From a virus: a DNA stretch of 64,000 nt. The first letter of the stretch is position 1. Every line of letters starts with the position of its first letter. The position numbers and the translations under genes are program-made. Below are positions 3,034 through 51,784 of this stretch, one piece after another. The DNA lies in IMG/VR virus record IMGVR_UViG_3300032291_002524, positions 42,316-106,315 of that record, one strand, 5' to 3'. The notes beneath the pieces were generated by a model that saw only the letters and a list, made by a program, of their open reading frames with translations, searched no databases and had not been told where the DNA came from.

Positions 3034-3191
3034 AATATTATTATTTTTGTTTATATTTTTTTTTCAGGTTTACTAAAACCGTGCCAAAAGATTTTTGTAT
3101 GGAAAAAATGACATAATGTCGTATTATCATTATTTTATACTGACATATTGTCATGTTGATTATCTAAAAATTAATTTTATATTTGTGGTGT

Positions 3192-5252
3192 ATGATAGAT
3201 TTTGACGATAATCAAGAAGCAGGAAAGAAGAAAACTTCCAAATCAGAAAATACGGGAAGTTCAACCCCCGTTTTAGATAATTTTTCTCGTGATTTAATTA
3301 AATTGGCATCCGAAGGTAAATTAGACCCCGTTATTGGTCGAGATATTGAAATTAATAGACTTGCCCAAATTATATCAAGGAGAAAGAAAAATAACCCAAT
3401 ATTAATCGGTGAGCCCGGTTGTGGAAAAACAGCTGTGGTTGAAGGATTGGCCATCAAAATTTTTGAAGGTAATTGCCCTCAAAATTTGTTAGATAAACGA
3501 ATTGTTAGTTTGGATATGACATCAATCGTTGCAGGTACCAAATATCGTGGTCAATTTGAAGAACGTTTAAAAGTTATTTTAGATGAACTTCGAGATAATC
3601 ATGAAACCATTGTGTTTATTGATGAAATTCACACAATTATAGGTGCGGGTAATTCTTCGGGGTCACTTGACGCATCCAACATCTTTAAACCTGCACTTGC
3701 ACGTGGAGAACTCCAATGTATCGGAGCAACAACCTTGGACGAATATCGGGAACATATTGAAAAGGACGGAGCATTGGAAAGACGGTTCCAAAAGGTTTTA
3801 GTTGAACCATCTTCAATTGAAGATACAATCACAATCCTAATGAGAGCCAAGGAAAACTATGAAAAACACCATAAAGTTTTCTTCAGTGAAGAATCAATTA
3901 AAGCATGTGTTCATTTGGCCGATAGGTATATAACTGACCGAAGTTTTCCTGATAAAGCAATTGATATCATGGATGAAGTCGGAGCTCGTAGTCAAATCGC
4001 TGTTAAATTACCGGAAGTTATTGAACAGTTAAAAGAAGAAGCTGAAAAAATAAAACAGAGTAAGTTAGATGTTGTTAGAAATCAGAGATTTGAGGAAGCC
4101 GCAGAACTTCGTGACCGTGAACGAAAAGTGTTAAAACAATTACAAGAAGAAAAAGAAAAGTTTGAAAATGACCGTTTAACAAATAAAAAACTTGTCGATG
4201 AGAACATGGTGTATGAAGTGGTTGCATCAATGACAAAGATACCAATCACCAAATTGACACAGTCAGAATCAGAATCACTACTTCAATTAGAACAAAATTT
4301 ACAAAATTCAGTTATTGGTCAAGATGATGCTGTTAGTAAAATTGCAAAGGCAATCCGACGAAATCGTGTTGGGATTAAAGAACCTAACAAACCAATTGGT
4401 TCATTTATTTTTCTTGGGTCCACAGGTATTGGTAAAACCCATTTGGCTAAACAATTAGCAAAAGAAGTTTTTGGTGATTCGGACGCATTAATTCGAATGG
4501 ATATGTCAGAATATCAAGAAAAATTTACAATGTCTCGTTTGATTGGTTCACCTCCGGGTTATGTTGGATTTAATGAAGGAGGTCAATTGACTGAACAGGT
4601 TAGAAATAAACCATATTCGGTAATATTATTTGACGAAATCGAAAAGGCCCATAAAGATATCTTCACTTTATTGTTACAAACAATGGACGAAGGGTTCTTA
4701 ACCGATAGTAATGGTAGAAAAATTAATTTCAAAAATACCGTTATTATTATGACATCTAACATTGGTGCTAGAAAAGTTCAAGAATTCGGTGCTGGTGTTG
4801 GTTTTGGCACAAGTGCTAAAATGGATAAAGAACTTGAAATAAAGAAAATGGCAGTAGAGGATGAACTGAAGAAGTTTTTCCCACCTGAATTTATAAATCG
4901 TGTTGATGATATTGTATTCTTTAATTCATTAAAAGAAGATGAAGTGAATCAGATTGTTAAAATTGAATTATCAAAATTAACCAACAGACTTTCATCTATG
5001 AACTATAAAATCGAAATAGGTGACGAAATGTTGAAACATATTTGTGAAATTGGTTTCGATGAAAAGTTTGGGGCCAGACCTATTAAAAGAGCAATTCAAA
5101 GTCAAATTGAAGACTTTATTTCCGATGAAATATTAAAAGGTAATTTAATCACTGATATTGAATATACTGTGGATTATATAGATGGTTCACCTTTATTAAT
5201 AACCAAAGATTCAAAACCGAAACGAGTAAAGAAAAAGAAAGAAACTGAATAA
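3192..5252 (+). CDS. clpC: ClpC-type Hsp100 AAA+ unfoldase lacking the N-terminal Clp_N domain
   Basis: Walker A GEPGCGKT and GSTGIGKT, IDEIH and FDEIEK, UVR middle domain RFEEAAELRD, ClpP-docking loop VGFG; start set to ATG 3192 after the TATATTTG box. Confidence 0.93.
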   Translation: MIDFDDNQEAGKKKTSKSENTGSSTPVLDNFSRDLIKLASEGKLDPVIGRDIEINRLAQIISRRKKNNPILIGEPGCGKTAVVEGLAIKIFEGNCPQNLLDKRIVSLDMTSIVAGTKYRGQFEERLKVILDELRDNHETIVFIDEIHTIIGAGNSSGSLDASNIFKPALARGELQCIGATTLDEYREHIEKDGALERRFQKVLVEPSSIEDTITILMRAKENYEKHHKVFFSEESIKACVHLADRYITDRSFPDKAIDIMDEVGARSQIAVKLPEVIEQLKEEAEKIKQSKLDVVRNQRFEEAAELRDRERKVLKQLQEEKEKFENDRLTNKKLVDENMVYEVVASMTKIPITKLTQSESESLLQLEQNLQNSVIGQDDAVSKIAKAIRRNRVGIKEPNKPIGSFIFLGSTGIGKTHLAKQLAKEVFGDSDALIRMDMSEYQEKFTMSRLIGSPPGYVGFNEGGQLTEQVRNKPYSVILFDEIEKAHKDIFTLLLQTMDEGFLTDSNGRKINFKNTVIIMTSNIGARKVQEFGAGVGFGTSAKMDKELEIKKMAVEDELKKFFPPEFINRVDDIVFFNSLKEDEVNQIVKIELSKLTNRLSSMNYKIEIGDEMLKHICEIGFDEKFGARPIKRAIQSQIEDFISDEILKGNLITDIEYTVDYIDGSPLLITKDSKPKRVKKKKETE

Positions 5253-30821: not shown

Positions 30822-31250
30822 ATGAAAATGAAAAAATTATACTTGGACGATGTTAGAATACCTCGTCATTCATATCCGGCAATGTCAAGAAGAATTGGTT
30901 CAGATTCTGCCATATATCAAAATGATGATTGGAATATTGTTAGGACATATGATGAATTTGTAAATTGGATTAGTGAAAATGGGTTACCTGATATTGTGTC
31001 ATTCGACCACGACTTGGCGGATGAACACATTCAATATTATTTTGATAATGGTGGTAACGCAAACCCACCTGACCCCCAAAAAACAACTTTTGAGGAAAAA
31101 ACGGGGTATGATTGTGCTAAATGGTTGGTAGATTATTGTGTTAAAACGCAACAAAAATTACCTGAATATTTGGTTCATTCTGCAAATCCTGTTGGTGGAT
31201 ATAATATCTTGACGTATCTAAACAACGCAAAAAAACACACGAACATCTAA
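30822..31250 (+). CDS. Cyclic-phosphate-processing receiver-like domain protein
   Basis: LYLDDVR.P, VR.YDEF, SFDHDL, TGYDCAKWL, HSANPVG. Confidence 0.8.
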   Translation: MKMKKLYLDDVRIPRHSYPAMSRRIGSDSAIYQNDDWNIVRTYDEFVNWISENGLPDIVSFDHDLADEHIQYYFDNGGNANPPDPQKTTFEEKTGYDCAKWLVDYCVKTQQKLPEYLVHSANPVGGYNILTYLNNAKKHTNI

Positions 31251-31525
31251 TGGAAGTTCTTAAGGATGGTGACATATTGCAGGAAAGTGATAAGGTTAAA
31301 AAAATACATATTAACCAGCATAACATTCGTTCAAATAAAACGAAAGAAACTGACCTTCCTGTAATCACCATTAAAATAGGTAGTAAAAACTATTATTGTA
31401 ATGAAATAGAAATTATGGGACCATCCAAAGTTATCTATTGCGGTAGTGGTAACCAAAAACCGTTGATGAGTTGTGGGGCCAGAGTGGTAATTGAAACAAC
31501 ATCAGAAATAAAAATTAAAAAATAA
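31250..31525 (+). CDS. Conserved phage hypothetical protein
   Basis: IHINQH.IR.N...PVITIK...LMSCGARVVIET. Confidence 0.7.
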   Translation: MEVLKDGDILQESDKVKKIHINQHNIRSNKTKETDLPVITIKIGSKNYYCNEIEIMGPSKVIYCGSGNQKPLMSCGARVVIETTSEIKIKK

Positions 31526-31548
31526 TTTGACACTTAAAGAAACTTTTG

Positions 31549-31556
31549 TATCTTTG
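31549..31556 (+). promoter_or_regulatory. Bacteroidota sigma-A -7 box TAnnTTTG (representative; also 3178, 8403, 9034, 18345, 29514, 32015, 38854, 40324, 42835, 43880, 44013)
   Basis: TATCTTTG with TTTG about 20 nt upstream; the motif recurs just before gene or RNA starts. Confidence 0.8.
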
Positions 31557-31587
31557 TATCATATTTAGAAAGAAAGGAAATAATAAA

Positions 31588-31748
31588 ATGACACTCGTGA
31601 AAAAACATATTGTGAAATCGTTTATTCAGTTATGTAATAACTGGTATATTCGCTTGTCAATAAGTTCGGGTGTTGTTGTATAACAACTTTTAGCCTTAAA
31701 TAAGGAAACCCGAACTCACAAGGTTCGGGTTTTTTTTGTTCTTTGACA
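31588..31748 (+). promoter_or_regulatory. Leader-peptide attenuator plus boxA before tRNA array 1
   Basis: 31-aa uORF 31588-31683 contains AGTTCGGGT, complementary to the terminator 5' arm ACCCGAACT; terminator 31706-31737; GTTCTTTGACA at 31738-31748. Confidence 0.75.
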
Positions 31749-31765
31749 TGTTGGTAACCAAAAAT

Positions 31766-31838
31766 GGGGTAGTGGCAGATGAGGTCATTGCGACGGACTG
31801 AAAATCCGTAGGAACAGGCTCGATACCTGTCTACCCCA
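31766..31838 (+). tRNA. tRNA-Phe(GAA)
   Basis: Cloverleaf; ACGGA-CTGAAAA-TCCGT. Confidence 0.9.
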
Positions 31839-31844
31839 CAATAT

Positions 31845-31922
31845 TGGGATATAGCTCAGTTGGTTTAGAGCATCTGTCTGATACACAGAAGGTCATCGGT
31901 TCAAGTCCGGTTATCCCAACCA
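31845..31922 (+). tRNA. tRNA-Ile(GAT)
   Basis: TCTGT-CTGATAC-ACAGA; CCA encoded. Confidence 0.93.
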
Positions 31923-31927
31923 TATAT

Positions 31928-32003
31928 TGTCCTGTGGTGTAATTGGCAACACATCTCACTTTGACTGAGAAGAGTCCAGGTTCGAACCCTGGCGGGATAA
32001 CCA
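31928..32003 (+). tRNA. tRNA-Gln(TTG)
   Basis: TCTCA-CTTTGAC-TGAGA; CCA encoded. Confidence 0.93.
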
Positions 32004-32026
32004 AAAAAAAGTATTATATTTGTAAT

Positions 32027-32587
32027 ATGAAAATAAACAGAAAGGACCTAAATTGGTTTCTCCAAAACATCCGTAGGGGAAATGAGGGTCAGGAACTAAC
32101 GGATGAACAGTTGGTTGACAAACTGGCTTCCTATATGGAAACCAACCCATCCTGTATTGATATGGAAGGTGTTAGTAATCCTGGTAGGTTTAGTTATTCA
32201 ACTGTTGGTTATGGTGTTTTTTCACTTATGGGTGAAAAATACCGAATGGGTAGAATTGAAATCTTTGATAGTGAAGATGAATCAGGATATGCGGTTAGTG
32301 AAGGTATTTACACAATGCCATTCGTTGCGGCAAGTCAATTTGAAGATTTTATCGAGTCTTTGGAAACTGACCTTCCAATTAATATTGAAATTGGGTCTCA
32401 TAAGTGGTGTGAAGATGAATGTGCAAAATCTCTTGGTTTTGAAAATGAGGAAGAGATGAGAAACCCTGAAAAAGTGAAAGAATATCGTAGAAAGAAAAAC
32501 GATGAATTTGCACAAGAAGAGGGTTATAAAGATTGGGACGATTTGTTGGCAAACAGTAAATTTGCACCATTAAAAAAAGAAATTTAA
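32027..32587 (+). CDS. Hypothetical protein
   Basis: Start moved past the tRNA to the ATG after TATATTTG. Confidence 0.7.
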   Translation: MKINRKDLNWFLQNIRRGNEGQELTDEQLVDKLASYMETNPSCIDMEGVSNPGRFSYSTVGYGVFSLMGEKYRMGRIEIFDSEDESGYAVSEGIYTMPFVAASQFEDFIESLETDLPINIEIGSHKWCEDECAKSLGFENEEEMRNPEKVKEYRRKKNDEFAQEEGYKDWDDLLANSKFAPLKKEI

Positions 32588-33267: not shown

Positions 33268-34011
33268 ATGAAATGGACTGATGATAAAATTGAAAATTTA
33301 ACACGTTTCGTTGAATTGGGTTTTAAACCACAAGAAATTGCAAAAATGTTAAAAACTACTTACAAATCAATTACAAGTAAAATGTTTTTATTAGGATTAA
33401 AAGTTGTTTACACAGAAAAAAAAACATGTAAAAATTGTGATATTCAATTTGACACACATATCACCAACGGTAAAATATTTTGTTCGTCAAGTTGTTCGGC
33501 GATTTACAATAATAAAAAACGTACACTAAGTGATGAAACGAAAAGTAAAATATCCAATACATTAAAAAATAAACCAAAAAAAGACAAACTAATAAAAAAC
33601 AAAATATGTAAAGTATGTAAAGTATGTAAAGTTCGTGAAATTAATGAAAAACATAAAAGGATTTGTAATAACTGTAAATTAGATTATTATGAGTATTACA
33701 GACCTTCGTGTGTTTTTAATTTTAACCCTTACGATTTTCCTGAAGAGTTTAACTTAAATTTAGTAAAAAATAATGGGTGGTACTCACCATCCAACAAAAA
33801 AAATAATTTATATGGTGTGAGTAAAGACCATAAATTATCAATAATGGATGGGTACCGAAATAAAATAAACACAAACATCATATCACATCCGGCAAATTGT
33901 GAATTAATATTATTTTCGGATAATTCAGTAAAAAAAGATAAATCATCAATAACTCTAAATGAATTACTAAAAAAAATTGAGGAGTGGAATGTAAAATATG
34001 GTAAAAGTTAA
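33268..34011 (+). mobile_element. Putative HNH-type homing endonuclease, paralogue of 47693
   Basis: Cys ribbons plus SKDHKLS...ISHPANC...DN..K; inserted in the tRNA array. Confidence 0.65.
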
Positions 34012-34582: not shown

Positions 34583-34654
34583 ACGGATGTAGCTCAGGGG
34601 CAGAGCACTTGTCTCCAAAACAAGGTGTCGGGATATCGTAATTCTCCATCCGTG
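34583..34654 (+). tRNA. tRNA-Trp(CCA)
   Basis: CTTGT-CTCCAAA-ACAAG; deviant T-loop ATCGTAA. Confidence 0.85.
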
Positions 34655-35999: not shown

Positions 36000-36112
36000 A
36001 GTCAGGTGGCGGAATGGTAGACGCTTAAGGTCATAAGGTATAGTACATAGCTCCGTATTAAAGAGTCAGTTGCCGAATCTATACCATACAGGTTCGAATC
36101 CTGTCTTGACTG
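36000..36112 (+). ncRNA. tRNA-shell RNA copy 1 (63-nt cargo)
   Basis: AGTCAGGTGGCGGAATGGTAGACGC...ACAGGTTCGAATCCTGTCTTGACTG. Confidence 0.85.
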
Positions 36113-36248: not shown

Positions 36249-36326
36249 AGTCAGGTGGCGGAATGGATAGACGCAACCACATAAGTGGTCAAACCGGTAC
36301 TACAGGTTCGAATCCTGTCCTGACTA
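36249..36326 (+). ncRNA. tRNA-shell RNA copy 2 (27-nt cargo, 4-nt loop in place of the anticodon loop)
   Basis: Same 5' and 3' shell; ACCAC-ATAA-GTGGT. Confidence 0.85.
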
Positions 36327-36466
36327 CGCTCCTTTCTGGCGTTTTTAACAATAGGACGTGGTACAGATGCACCAGATGGATGTACCAACCCAGCATCAGG
36401 GACTTGGCAAGTTTTCGGTAGCCAATCAGATGTAACCGATGACAGCTCGGAAAGTACGAGCAATAT

Positions 36467-42679: not shown

Positions 42680-42886
42680 ATGAGAACCATTTTCATATTC
42701 GGAACACCAGCAACAGAGGGTGATACTTCCAAAGTGGAGATGGGATAATATTGTCTTTTAGACCTTAAAGAAACCCATCTCCAAAAAAGATGGGTTTTTT
42801 TTGTTACCTATTTGGCAAATCAAAAATAATGTTGTATCTTTGTATTGTTGTTGATGATAACAACATAACAAAAGAGTTCTTTGACA
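42680..42886 (+). promoter_or_regulatory. Leader-peptide attenuator, internal sigma-A box and boxA before tRNA array 2
   Basis: 22-aa uORF 42680-42748 ends in GGAGATGGG, complementary to CCCATCTCC of the terminator 42771-42802; GTTCTTTGACA at 42876-42886. Confidence 0.72.
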
Positions 42887-42970
42887 TATTGGAAACCAAA
42901 AAAAAAATAAATTGGTTAGGATAACCAACTTTTTTAAGGGTTCGTAATATTTATCATTAAATGATATATT

Positions 42971-43876
42971 ATGTATAAATGTGGATATTGCGAAAAAGAT
43001 TTTAAGAATAAGGGAGGTTATGTAAGACATAATAAAACCTGTAAAATTGTTGATAATATTAGAGATGATGTTTACCGATTATATGTTGATGATTTGTGGA
43101 GTATAAAAGACATTGAAAAAAAATATAAGATTGGCCATAATACGGTCAATCAGATTTTAGGAGATTCAAAAAGAACACAATCTGAAGGTAATAAAACAGC
43201 TCGTAAGAAATATCCTGAAAATTTTAAACATACTGAAAAATCTAAACAAATTTTAAGGGAGAAACGATTAAAATTTATGAAAGATAATCCCGACAAAACT
43301 GCTTGGAGATTAAAGAATATATCATACCCTGAAAAATTGTTTTATAACAAAGTTATTGAATTAGGGTGGGATAAGAAGTATTCAATTAAACGAGAATACT
43401 CAGTATTTCCATATTTTATTGATTTTGCGTTTTTAAATGAAAAAGTTGCCGTTGAAATTGACGGTTCTCAACACCTTCTTCCTGAACGAAAATTAAAAGA
43501 CAGTGAAAAAGACGATTTATTAATTTCAAATGGATGGAATGTTATTAGGATATCTGAATATAAAATAAAAACCGAAATTGAAAATGTCTTTGTTGAAATA
43601 TTACAAGTTTTAAATAAAAATGTTAAACCTAAATTACATAGAGTTGGAATCGTATTACACCCAAAGAAAAACCAAAAGAAAAAACGAGAAAAAAATGGAT
43701 TGACAAAAGAACAACTAAATTCTATTAAATCTCAAAGAAAAATTAACAGACCTGATTATAAAACATTAATTAACGAAGTAAAAGAATTTGGTTTTAATAA
43801 AACAGGTAAAAAATACGGGGTTAGTGATAACGCGATTAGAAAATGGGTTAAATTTTATGAAAAATATGAAAATTAA
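42971..43876 (+). mobile_element. DUF559/Vsr-like endonuclease with zinc finger and HTH, probable homing endonuclease
   Basis: YPEK, YFIDFAF..KVAVEIDGSQH...D..KD..L...GW.VIRI. Confidence 0.8.
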
Positions 43877-43975: not shown

Positions 43976-44031
43976 CAAAAAAAAAAGATTTGGTAAATTA
44001 AAAAATTATCATTATCTTTGAATTATCAAAT

Positions 44032-47692: not shown

Positions 47693-48469
47693 ATGAAAAA
47701 ATGTAAAAACATTGAATGTGAAAATAGTGTTTTGAAACATAGAGTATATTGTTCATTAACTTGTCGTAATATCTATGTTAATAGATATATGAGGGATTAT
47801 TCTAAAGCAGGTCAAACTATTAGTAATAAATCAATTGATTTATATATGAAGAATATAAAACATTGTCAAAACCCTAAATGTGGTAAAGAAATACCATATG
47901 AAAAAAGGAGAAATAATTATTGTGACAGTAGTTGTAGTACTTCACACATTAATATTAAAAGGCCACATACATGGGGTGATAAGATAAAAAAGGGGGTGAT
48001 TAATTATCACATAAAAAATGGTCATATTAAAACTAAAATATGTGGTTTTTGTGGTAATGAATTTTCAAATAGAAATAAATATTGTTCAATAGATTGTTAT
48101 AAACACAAACGAAGAGAACATATTAATGAATATGAAAAATATAAATTAGACTGTAAATTCAAATTTAACGTGTATGACTATCCGCAAGAATTTGATTTGT
48201 CTTTAATTGATAAGTATGGTTGGTACAAAGCAATAAATAATGGCAATAATTTACGAGGTATTAGTAGGGACCATATGTTATCAATCAATGAAGGGTACAT
48301 GTTAGGTATTGACCCATATTTAATTTCTCATCCTGCAAATTGTAAATTAATGATTCATACTGACAATATTAGTAAGAATAAAAAATCGTCAATAACAAAA
48401 GAAGAGTTAATTAAAAAAATAGATAGTTGGAACATTAAATATCCATTAATAAATGGGGTTGTCGTATAA
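47693..48469 (+). mobile_element. Putative HNH-type homing endonuclease, paralogue of 33268
   Basis: YCS..C repeats, SRDHMLS...ISHPANC...DN..K. Confidence 0.65.
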
Positions 48470-48526
48470 AAGATATTACAATGGTTTTGCAAACCATAAA
48501 ACACGGAGCGTTACCGTGCGACTCCA
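48455..48526 (+). tRNA. tRNA-Ala(TGC)
   Basis: G3.U70, ATGGT-TTTGCAA-ACCAT; deviant T-loop AGCGTTA. Confidence 0.82.
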
Positions 48527-50552: not shown

Positions 50553-50957
50553 ATGACTTACAAACATCAATTCAAGAGATTTTTACAGAAGATAGCGGTA
50601 GACCTAACTAGAAAGTTTAATCCTTCTATTATACAAGGTACCCAACACGGTCGTGAGTGTTTATCAATATGTCAAAAATTAATCACCAATCCCGAAACTG
50701 ATTTATATGTATCACCATTATCAGCTAAGAAATATATTAAAAACGACGAACATAAGATATTTATAATTCTTCAAGGAAAAACGGTTCAAATTATAAACCA
50801 TGTTTATAGTTATTTAATTTTGACGGATGATAGAACATGGGAAAAAATAATGGAATTCTTCAATGAAGAACAAGAACGTAGATGTTTGAAATTAGAATCG
50901 GAAATAAACGTAAACATTAAACAATCATTAAAAAACATAAGTAATAATCTTAAATAA
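50553..50957 (+). CDS. Hypothetical protein
   Basis: Follows a TAACTTTG box. Confidence 0.65.
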   Translation: MTYKHQFKRFLQKIAVDLTRKFNPSIIQGTQHGRECLSICQKLITNPETDLYVSPLSAKKYIKNDEHKIFIILQGKTVQIINHVYSYLILTDDRTWEKIMEFFNEEQERRCLKLESEINVNIKQSLKNISNNLK

Positions 50958-50958
50958 A

Positions 50959-51246
50959 ATGGGAACAAATTCATTTAAATCGACATACCGTTTTGGTGGT
51001 ACAATATTTGTAATTTCGGTATTAACAATGTCAATAATTTTTGGAACATTGTTTAGGTCTTGTGGTGTTTCTGATAATGTTGTTAATGTAAATTTACCTG
51101 AAAGTGTCGACGGAAAAAGTGATACCGTTTTTATCGAAAAAGAAGTTGAAAGGGTAATTAGAGATACTGTCAGAATACCTTACACATCAAAAATAAAACA
51201 ATCGAATGATAATGGTTCATTTTTAAAAAAAGACACCATAAAATAA
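50959..51246 (+). CDS. Single-pass membrane protein
   Basis: TM helix, DTV motifs. Confidence 0.6.
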   Translation: MGTNSFKSTYRFGGTIFVISVLTMSIIFGTLFRSCGVSDNVVNVNLPESVDGKSDTVFIEKEVERVIRDTVRIPYTSKIKQSNDNGSFLKKDTIK

Positions 51247-51252
51247 AGTTCA

Positions 51253-51326
51253 GGACCCTTAGCTCAGTTGGTCAGAGCAACTGACTCATAATCAGTAGGT
51301 CGATGGTTCAAGCCCATCAGGGTCCA
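51253..51326 (+). tRNA. tRNA(CAT), probably Ile2 (lysidine type)
   Basis: ACTGA-CTCATAA-TCAGT; GGACCCT acceptor. Confidence 0.85.
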
Positions 51327-51332
51327 CTAAAT

Positions 51333-51406
51333 GCTCACGTAGCTCAGTTGGTAAGAGCAGATGTCTTATACACATCAGGTCACAGGTTCAATTCCTGTCG
51401 TGAGTA
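51333..51406 (+). tRNA. tRNA-Ile(TAT)
   Basis: GATGT-CTTATAC-ACATC. Confidence 0.9.
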
Positions 51407-51421
51407 CTAAATATTATTGTT

Positions 51422-51598
51422 ATGTATTGTATTGTGAAATTAGTTAAAACTATTGATGGTAAAGAATTACCGGTTATTATGTTAGATTCATCAGATGAGG
51501 TTTGGGAATTTGAAAATATGAGTGACGCTTCTGAAATATCTGAGATATTAACAAAAAATTCAGATTCTGGGTATACATATACCGCAAAAAAGATTTAA
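51422..51598 (+). CDS. Small hypothetical protein (58 aa, not in the ORF track)
   Basis: MYCIVKLVKTIDGKELPVIMLDSSDEVWEF... Confidence 0.65.
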   Translation: MYCIVKLVKTIDGKELPVIMLDSSDEVWEFENMSDASEISEILTKNSDSGYTYTAKKI

Positions 51599-51616
51599 AT
51601 TTGTAATTATATACAT

Positions 51617-51688
51617 GGCCCTGTAGGTAAATGGATATACCAACTCTCTTCTAAAGAGTAATTCGTGGTTCGATTCCACGTAGGGCTA
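51617..51688 (+). tRNA. tRNA-Arg(TCT)
   Basis: ACTCT-CTTCTAA-AGAGT. Confidence 0.9.
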
Positions 51689-51696
51689 CAAAATAC

Positions 51697-51784
51697 GGAA
51701 GGTTGTCAGAGCGGTAATGAAGCGGTTTGCTAAACCGTACATCTATAAGTAGATGCGATGGTTCGAATCCATCACCTTCCGCCA
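51697..51784 (+). tRNA. tRNA-Ser(GCT)
   Basis: GCGGT-TTGCTAA-ACCGT; long arm; CCA. Confidence 0.92.

Follow-up and report, generated by a model that had tools for sequence, protein, structure and literature searches.

A candidate leader-peptide attenuator ahead of a phage tRNA gene array

The subject of this study is a short regulatory module that precedes a transfer RNA (tRNA) gene array, here called array 1, in phage DNA of 64,000 nucleotides; this whole stretch is referred to as the window and comprises bases 42316-106315 of the 106-kb IMG/VR virus record IMGVR_UViG_3300032291_002524. All evidence in the analysis is computational. The record is rated 34% complete by CheckV, which suggests a source phage genome of roughly 300 kb. 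The window has a G+C content of 30% and contains 28 tRNA genes according to ARAGORN, each of them located on the + strand in the interval 31.7-51.8 kb, while the Rfam tRNA model gives three tRNA hits beyond these (34583-34654, 48455-48526, and 36000-36112). Ahead of array 1 lie a promoter, a leader open reading frame (ORF), an intrinsic terminator with an upstream complement to its 5' arm, and a boxA motif, after which the array starts with tRNA-Phe at 31766 and continues in the order Phe, Ile, Gln, Lys, Val, Tyr, Cys, His, Ser(UGA), Arg(ACG), Trp(CCA), Met, Leu(UAG), Asn, Phe, and one odd tRNA. The features of the locus are the following.

31526-31556, + strand: Bacteroidota-type sigma-A promoter (-33 TTTG at 31526-29, 19-nt spacer, -7 TATCTTTG at 31549-56)
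31588-31683, + strand: leader ORF 1, 31 codons plus TAA (ATG 31588, TAA 31681-83), encoding MTLVKKHIVKSFIQLCNNWYIRLSISSGVVV
31591-31653, + strand: predicted sensing window, codons 2-22 (TLVKKHIVKSFIQLCNNWYIR), from nascent-transcript folding
31627-31643, + strand: ORF-internal hairpin CAGTTAT-GTA-ATAACTG, from folding and alignment
31663-31671, + strand: antiterminator 5' strand AGTTCGGGT, with its exact reverse complement at 31708-31716
31672-31687, + strand: stop-codon hairpin GTTGTT-GTAT-AACAAC inside the antiterminator domain, from folding
31702-31737, + strand: intrinsic terminator with 5 G-C pairs and a T8 tract (core: 5' arm AAACCCGAAC 31706-15, loop 31716-22, 3' arm GTTCGGGTTT 31723-32, U tract to 31737)
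31738-31756, + strand: boxA GTTCTTTGACATGTTGGTA, the same motif as found immediately ahead of tRNA genes in numerous phage contigs
31766-36327, + strand: tRNA array 1, the putatively regulated genes, with interspersed ORFs (ARAGORN and Rfam tRNA model)
34583-34654, + strand: tRNA-Trp(CCA) within array 1 (Rfam tRNA model; anticodon read from the sequence; unusual T-arm region)

The first-pass annotation of this DNA had proposed a translation-coupled attenuator composed of a sigma-A box, an upstream ORF at 31588-31683, a 9-mer at 31663-71 complementary to the 5' arm of a terminator at 31706-31737, and a boxA followed by tRNAs. All of these elements are present: the promoter is of the Bacteroidota TTTG/TAnnTTTG type, the ORF is an ATG ORF of 31 codons, the 9-mer is a perfect complement of 31708-16, hairpin and U tract are found at 31702-31737, and the motif before tRNA-Phe is that of the boxA in Bacteroidota ribosomal RNA operon (rrn) spacers. 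Promoters of this type, defined as -33 TTTG and -7 TAnnTTTG 17-21 nt apart, occur 21 times in the window, compared to 5.2 expected, a number that none of 100 shuffles reaches. Transcription would start at about 31562-65, and the 5' untranslated region before leader ORF 1 is about 25 nt long and A-rich. The terminator is the strongest terminator-like site in the 12 kb that were scanned. The 28 nt that separate it from tRNA-Phe contain boxA alone and no TAnnTTTG promoter, and the next strong terminator on the + strand after 31737 is the one at 42770.

The complement between the leader and the terminator is an uncommon property within the window. The two strands together hold 27 terminator-like hairpins, and a non-trivial complement of at least 9 nt is present upstream of only two of them. 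In each of these two cases the complement is situated at the 3' end of a short ORF and the terminator precedes a tRNA array, array 2 starting about 1.2 kb beyond its terminator. In related loci, a complement of at least 7 nt is found at 20/27 terminators with a tRNA within 400 nt and at 13/190 other terminators of the same loci (at least 8 nt: 15/27 and 4/190, respectively), and a second, independent scan of terminators gives 42/70 for at least 7 nt and 28/70 for at least 8 nt. The pairing is also maintained by compensatory changes, as the first-pass annotation had asked of related phages. In the alignment of the leader family (ten sequences), 93% of cells pair in the 9-bp antiterminator helix and three pairs change on both sides; the covariation score is reached by none of 500 shuffles, and controls with a slid partner strand pair in at most 53%. 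The terminator pairing holds in 94% of cells of the same family. Unrelated leaders likewise contain, in the 3' part of a short ORF, a segment complementary to the 5' arm of their own terminator, as in L055 (GTCGGGTTT/AAACCCGAC), L077 (ACAGTCGGGT/ACCCGACTGT), L115 (GGAGATGG/CCATCTCC), L121 (GGACTTGG/CCAAGTCC), and L128 (ATTGTCGGG/CCCGACAAT). In L066 the ORF ends right before GTTCGGGTG and the RNA segment is still kept, so that here the RNA and not the peptide motif SSGV is conserved.

The module as a whole is conserved independently of its upstream surroundings. Searches with the terminator and with the combined promoter and ORF patterns identified eight contigs in which promoter, 31-codon ORF, 9-mer, terminator, and boxA-like motif together precede tRNA-Phe; the upstream gene is different each time, which indicates that the module travels with the tRNA array. 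The promoter, for example, is kept in L046, L048, L049, L166, and L168 despite a different upstream gene. Synteny through the upstream gene of the window (31250-31525) was tried as another route, and none of its 43 relatives (L001-L043) has the leader downstream, so the module is independent of this gene. The 91-amino-acid protein that the gene encodes has many relatives in viral contigs with 45-82% identity and completely different downstream neighbours, and the gene is therefore a mobile or often reshuffled small gene. A BLAST search of 31200-32100 against GenBank phages returned tRNA similarity only. The leader belongs to no Rfam family, and matches to MicC, OrzO-P, and Thr_leader are far below threshold and reflect only the terminator. 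A scan with the boxA motif, however widely the sequences differ, finds the order promoter, short ORF, terminator, motif, and tRNA to be common in phage contigs.

The ORF is a regular component of these modules. An ATG ORF of 20-50 codons ending at the antiterminator strand is present in 61/64 terminator-boxA modules, which were chosen regardless of ORFs and are not all independent, compared to 10.6 in shuffled sequence. In the family of leader 1 the frame stays open at 25-32 codons with several synonymous changes. The stop codon follows the 9-mer after 9 nt in the window and lies within 15 nt of the antiterminator strand in 14/20 modules. With the covarying pairing and these ORFs, the geometry of translation-coupled attenuation holds and is conserved, and the leader ORF is presumably translated. 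Two further hairpins lie within the leader. The one at 31627-31643 has two pairs that change on both sides in relatives (CAATTCT/AGAATTG), a moderate support with 68-73% of cells paired in ten sequences, and it may be a pause or spacer hairpin. At the position of the stop-codon hairpin, relatives have hairpins of other sequence, with weak support in the alignment (55% of cells paired).

The second module of the window has the same design and a different sequence, and consists of the following features.

42680-42798, + strand: second module (leader 2, antiterminator strand, terminator)
42680-42748, + strand: leader 2 (MRTIFIFGTPATEGDTSKVEMG)
42735-44, + strand: antiterminator strand of module 2, TGGAGATGGG, a 10-nt complement
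42770-98, + strand: terminator of module 2
42811-42894, + strand: promoter (42811-42), hairpin, and second boxA (42876-94), downstream of terminator 2
48455-48526, + strand: tRNA-Ala(UGC) (Rfam tRNA model; anticodon read from the sequence)

Unlike module 1, module 2 has a fresh promoter after its terminator, and therefore array 2 is not fed through the attenuator alone. The first tRNA of array 2 follows behind an ORF and another promoter (43989-44020).

The direction of the putative switch was assessed by RNA folding. Equilibrium folding with a masked ribosome footprint was uninformative, since the terminator always wins, and folding of the nascent transcript was used instead, with the RNA ending at 31718 or 31722 and the 3' arm still missing. 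Under these conditions the probability of the antiterminator is 0.95-0.96 without a ribosome and 0.94-0.98 with the ribosomal A site at codons 2-21; codon 22 gives about 0.64, and between codon 23 and the stop the value does not exceed 0.05. Leader 2 matches this behaviour. Taken alone, the antiterminator domain (-18.8 kcal/mol) and the terminator (-17.9 kcal/mol) are of similar stability. A helix between 31590-97 and 31667-74, a possible counterpart of the 1:2 helix of attenuators, is seen when the full-length transcript is folded to minimum energy, gives way to the antiterminator in nascent RNA, and has a mismatch in L046; it was not used in the model because it is not conserved. The polarity put forward in the first-pass annotation, with termination when a ribosome at the stop codon masks the 9-mer and read-through when it stalls, is what nascent folding predicts, and the model thus favours this direction of the switch.

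The content of the leaders mirrors that of the arrays behind them. Apart from Met, 13 amino acids are carried by the tRNAs of array 1, and leader 1 covers every one of them (F, I, Q, K, V, Y, C, H, S, R, L, N, and W, the last counted through the Trp gene found with Rfam), lacks D, E, P, and A, and has 28 of its 30 post-start residues within the array 1 set; none of 20,000 random 30-mers from the window's own proteins matches array 1 as well. Leader 2 contains every amino acid of array 2 (E, T, G, D, S, P, and A, with A represented by the tRNA-Ala gene at 48455-48526), which compared to the window's own proteins corresponds to P = 0.009. Its codons include GAG twice, read by tRNA-Glu(CUC), and GCA, read by tRNA-Ala(UGC). 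Crossed combinations, in which leader 1 is set against array 2 and leader 2 against array 1, are depleted. In a permutation test in which the leader-array pairings of 20 non-redundant modules were shuffled 20,000 times, the observed values exceed the permuted means on four measures.

Amino-acid coverage: observed 0.927, permuted mean 0.793
Amino-acid precision: observed 0.488, permuted mean 0.383
Anticodon coverage: observed 0.869, permuted mean 0.671
Codon precision: observed 0.417, permuted mean 0.303

No permutation reaches the observed value on any of these measures, and this holds without the window. Tested against random segments of each locus's own proteins, 10/16 modules have P<0.05 (Fisher combined p 4e-19). 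The same pipeline applied to a fresh scan with 19 leader clusters unrelated to the first set replicates the result, with a coverage of 0.961 versus 0.742 and an anticodon coverage of 0.908 versus 0.633, again with none of 20,000 permutations as high. At the level of single codons, the leader of L123 contains CTC, TTA, CTA, and TTG, and the tRNA-Leu genes downstream have the anticodons AAG, UAA, UAG, and CAA. The mixed codons of leader 1 had initially been read as a sampler of general tRNA loss. This is not borne out: the leader codons mirror the tRNAs of their own array, so that the sensor would be array-specific rather than general.

The boxA motif provides a link to the host. In a scan of one genome per prokaryotic species, matches are found almost only in Bacteroidota, including Pedobacter, Mucilaginibacter, Chitinophagaceae, Flavobacteriales, and Bacteroidales, which points to a Bacteroidota host. 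Most matches (89/124) lie in the 16S-23S spacer just after tRNA-Ile/Ala, the place of the rrn spacer boxA. The motif was also considered as a promoter and rejected, as there is no TAnnTTTG or -10 element at the right distance. BoxA lies after the terminator at 31702-31737 and consequently cannot override it. It may rather load the host Nus complex on polymerases that have passed the attenuator, which would make them processive through the long array.

Together, we consider it likely that a ribosome-mediated leader-peptide attenuator controls the entry of polymerase into array 1 and makes tRNA expression demand-driven. In this model, transcription would start at the promoter (31526-56) and the leader ORF would be translated as it emerges. 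When the 5' arm (31706-16) leaves the polymerase, it would pair with AGTTCGGGT (31663-71) if this is free; the antiterminator would then block the terminator, and the polymerase would continue, transcribe boxA, become Nus-modified, and traverse the array. A ribosome between codon 23 and the stop would instead cover the 9-mer, in which case the terminator would form and transcription end at the U tract. Codons 2-22 would sample the amino acids and codons served by array 1 tRNAs, and slow decoding of any of these sensing codons, due to too little charged cognate tRNA, would yield more of exactly those tRNAs. Fast decoding would switch synthesis off, a demand-driven negative feedback. In a wider form, to which we incline only slightly, each phage array is headed by a leader that samples its own tRNAs codon by codon, and the phage reads which host tRNAs are limiting, by codon-usage mismatch, host shut-off, or anticodon-nuclease defence, and transcribes only the matching block; such leaders would then form a widespread, undescribed class in Bacteroidota phages. 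A sensor answering host anticodon nucleases is plausible.

Several other explanations for the locus can be weighed against this attenuator. The unit is equipped with a promoter of its own and with a strong terminator, and in some loci, including module 2 of the window, a fresh promoter follows the terminator. It could thus be an independent small gene or a small RNA of about 175 nt, with the tRNAs transcribed by constitutive leak-through and the 9-nt complement having no role in switching, all the more since terminated attenuator RNAs can act in trans, as is reported for rnTrpL (PMC6614838). This is improbable, since such a complement is almost restricted to terminators ahead of tRNAs and covaries with them, no promoter is present in the 28 nt between terminator and tRNA-Phe, and the peptides, although little conserved from one family to the next, each follow the amino-acid set of the array behind them. 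Even lower is the chance of an RNA-only switch that responds to a ligand, to a protein, or, as a T-box does, to directly bound tRNA instead of a ribosome, the ORF being incidental. The alternative structures are indeed real and covarying, L066 retains the RNA segment though its ORF ends before it, and the compensatory changes in the ORF-internal hairpin alter amino acids. On the other hand, no T-box or other cis-regulatory family comes near threshold, ORFs are present in excess (61/64 modules versus 10.6 expected), the stop codon is in most modules no more than about 15 nt away from the antiterminator strand, and the amino-acid and codon mirror is not explained without translation.

The role of translation could also be a different one, in that the leader ribosome shields the RNA from Rho or RNases, or the hairpin could mainly be a processing or stability element of the tRNA precursor, with the terminator-antiterminator competition being secondary. 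The position of boxA, a device against Rho-dependent termination, directly after the hairpin fits such a role, as does the long and largely untranslated array. We regard this as very unlikely, as a hairpin with eight U is a canonical intrinsic terminator and a covarying complement to its 5' arm is what a terminator/antiterminator switch requires. Finally, phage tRNA sets in general follow phage codon usage, and the match between leader and array might be a by-product of a phage-wide amino-acid usage that any phage ORF would show. Hardly any weight can be given to this explanation: random segments of the locus's own proteins match far less, the rare residues C, H, and W are covered, and leader 1 matches array 1 and not array 2 while the reverse is true for leader 2, a depletion of cross pairs within one phage that rules out phage-wide composition as the cause.

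For the attenuator itself, a number of observations weigh against it. The full transcript at equilibrium adopts the terminator wherever the ribosome footprint is placed, so that the model needs a kinetic, co-transcriptional competition, and it would further presuppose kinetic coupling of transcription and translation in a Bacteroidota host. In classical attenuators such as trp the decision is likewise kinetic. No conserved 1:2 (anti-antiterminator) helix was found, so that read-through is predicted for a leader without translation, unlike the trp attenuator. In the closest relatives the 9-mer and the terminator are invariant, and the covariation comes only from the distant L088 and L053. The matching residues are only modestly in excess in the sensing part (55%, versus 44% in the structural tail; Fisher p=0.009, paired p=0.07). 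The codon match is imperfect, with a tRNA-Leu(UAG) in array 1 and no CTA or CTG in leader 1, the Thr and Gly codons of leader 1 are served by array 2, and a few modules show no match (L149, L098). Internal promoters are located inside and after the arrays (35667, 42811, 43989). In addition, the related loci were recruited through boxA or terminator patterns, many of their arrays are truncated by contig ends, and the tRNA calls are imperfect.

Leader-peptide attenuation as such is a known mechanism, with multivalent examples in ilvGMEDA and thr, further amino-acid leaders such as trpL, hisL, leuL, and pheL, and the synthetase operon pheST. Of these, ilvGMEDA and thr, with their multivalent leaders, and pheST come closest to the phage module. 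To our knowledge there is no earlier case of leader-peptide attenuation of tRNA genes, as opposed to amino-acid or synthetase genes. Like the amino-acid attenuators, pheL (PMC3082878) among them, and the pheST leader, the phage module has a promoter-proximal short ORF and mutually exclusive antiterminator and terminator hairpins, and it is predicted to share with them that the ribosome position decides which hairpin forms and that the regulatory codons report the supply of charged tRNA. It differs from these systems in that the regulated genes are the tRNAs themselves, and in that its leader, in place of a run of one or two amino acids, samples up to 13 different ones, which match the array. 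Further, no conserved 1:2 helix was found in it, a boxA follows its terminator, and it is phage-encoded and found in Bacteroidota. With T-box riboswitches it would have in common a terminator/antiterminator switch that reports tRNA status and controls genes of the translation apparatus; a T-box, however, binds uncharged tRNA directly, with its specifier codon and T-box bulge, and works without an ORF, and a search of 31000-32200 with cmscan (E up to 10) detected no T-box, the best non-tRNA hits being far below gathering scores. The boxA is the same motif as in the Bacteroidota 16S-23S spacer and, as in rrn antitermination by Nus factors, stands at the head of a long non-coding transcription unit. 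In contrast to the rrn boxA, it heads a tRNA array downstream of a putatively regulated terminator and can act only on what follows.

The trn operon of Anabaena is comparable in function, being a silent array of 26 tRNA genes that is induced by translational stress (PMC8421152, PMC10272220). Both cases would concern an accessory tRNA array that is switched on when translation is impaired, which for the phage is a prediction. The trn operon is under promoter control, which the repressor TrcR exerts by binding to direct repeats, and it resides on a chromosome or plasmid and not in a virus; the papers on it describe no leader ORF, attenuator, or terminator (PMC8421152, PMC10272220). A full-text literature search, with incomplete coverage and therefore giving absence of evidence only, did not turn up any published description of phage tRNA genes being controlled by attenuation. 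What is new here is the tRNA-gene target, the leader that mirrors many amino acids, and the boxA that follows; the mechanism itself is known.

Phage tRNA genes are usually seen as constitutive cargo that fixes a codon bias or replaces tRNAs cut by defence systems. If the attenuator model is true, the tRNA supply of these phages would be a regulated and self-limiting response that operates through a sensor of decoding speed. This would provide a testable link between the depletion of host tRNAs and phage counter-measures. Leader sequences could then predict which tRNAs share one transcription unit, and the design would be a compact natural part for sensing translation capacity.

Some further observations concern the tRNA genes and their surroundings. 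Protein ORFs of 200-300 codons lie between the tRNA genes of the arrays (31943-32587, 33268-34011, and 42972-43875). The odd tRNA at the end of array 1 (36249-36327, ARAGORN) has a 2-nt 'anticodon', and the third additional Rfam hit, at 36000-36112, is a long tRNA-like element with a low score of 35 bits. Array 3 (51253-51784) comprises Met, Ile-UAU, Arg-UCU, and Ser-GCU, has no leader or terminator ahead, and directly follows the ORF at 50949-51246, with which it probably shares the promoter at 50513-44. The codons AGA and ATA, read by array 3 tRNAs, are present in leader 2. Relatives of the window contain tRNAs with stop-codon anticodons, namely CTA in L164 and in the close relative L166 (labelled 'Pyl' by ARAGORN) and TTA in L349, which hints that suppressor tRNAs or recoding of stop codons occur among these phages; none were seen in the window. 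In human-gut viral contigs such as L051, L073, L083, and similar ones, the boxA motif precedes long, low-scoring tRNA-like elements. These contigs were considered as leaders of ribosomal RNA genes, which was rejected because tRNA-like genes are found there instead: in L051 the motif is located at 2950 and is followed by tRNA-model hits at 3130-3263, 4022-4092, and 4185-4282.

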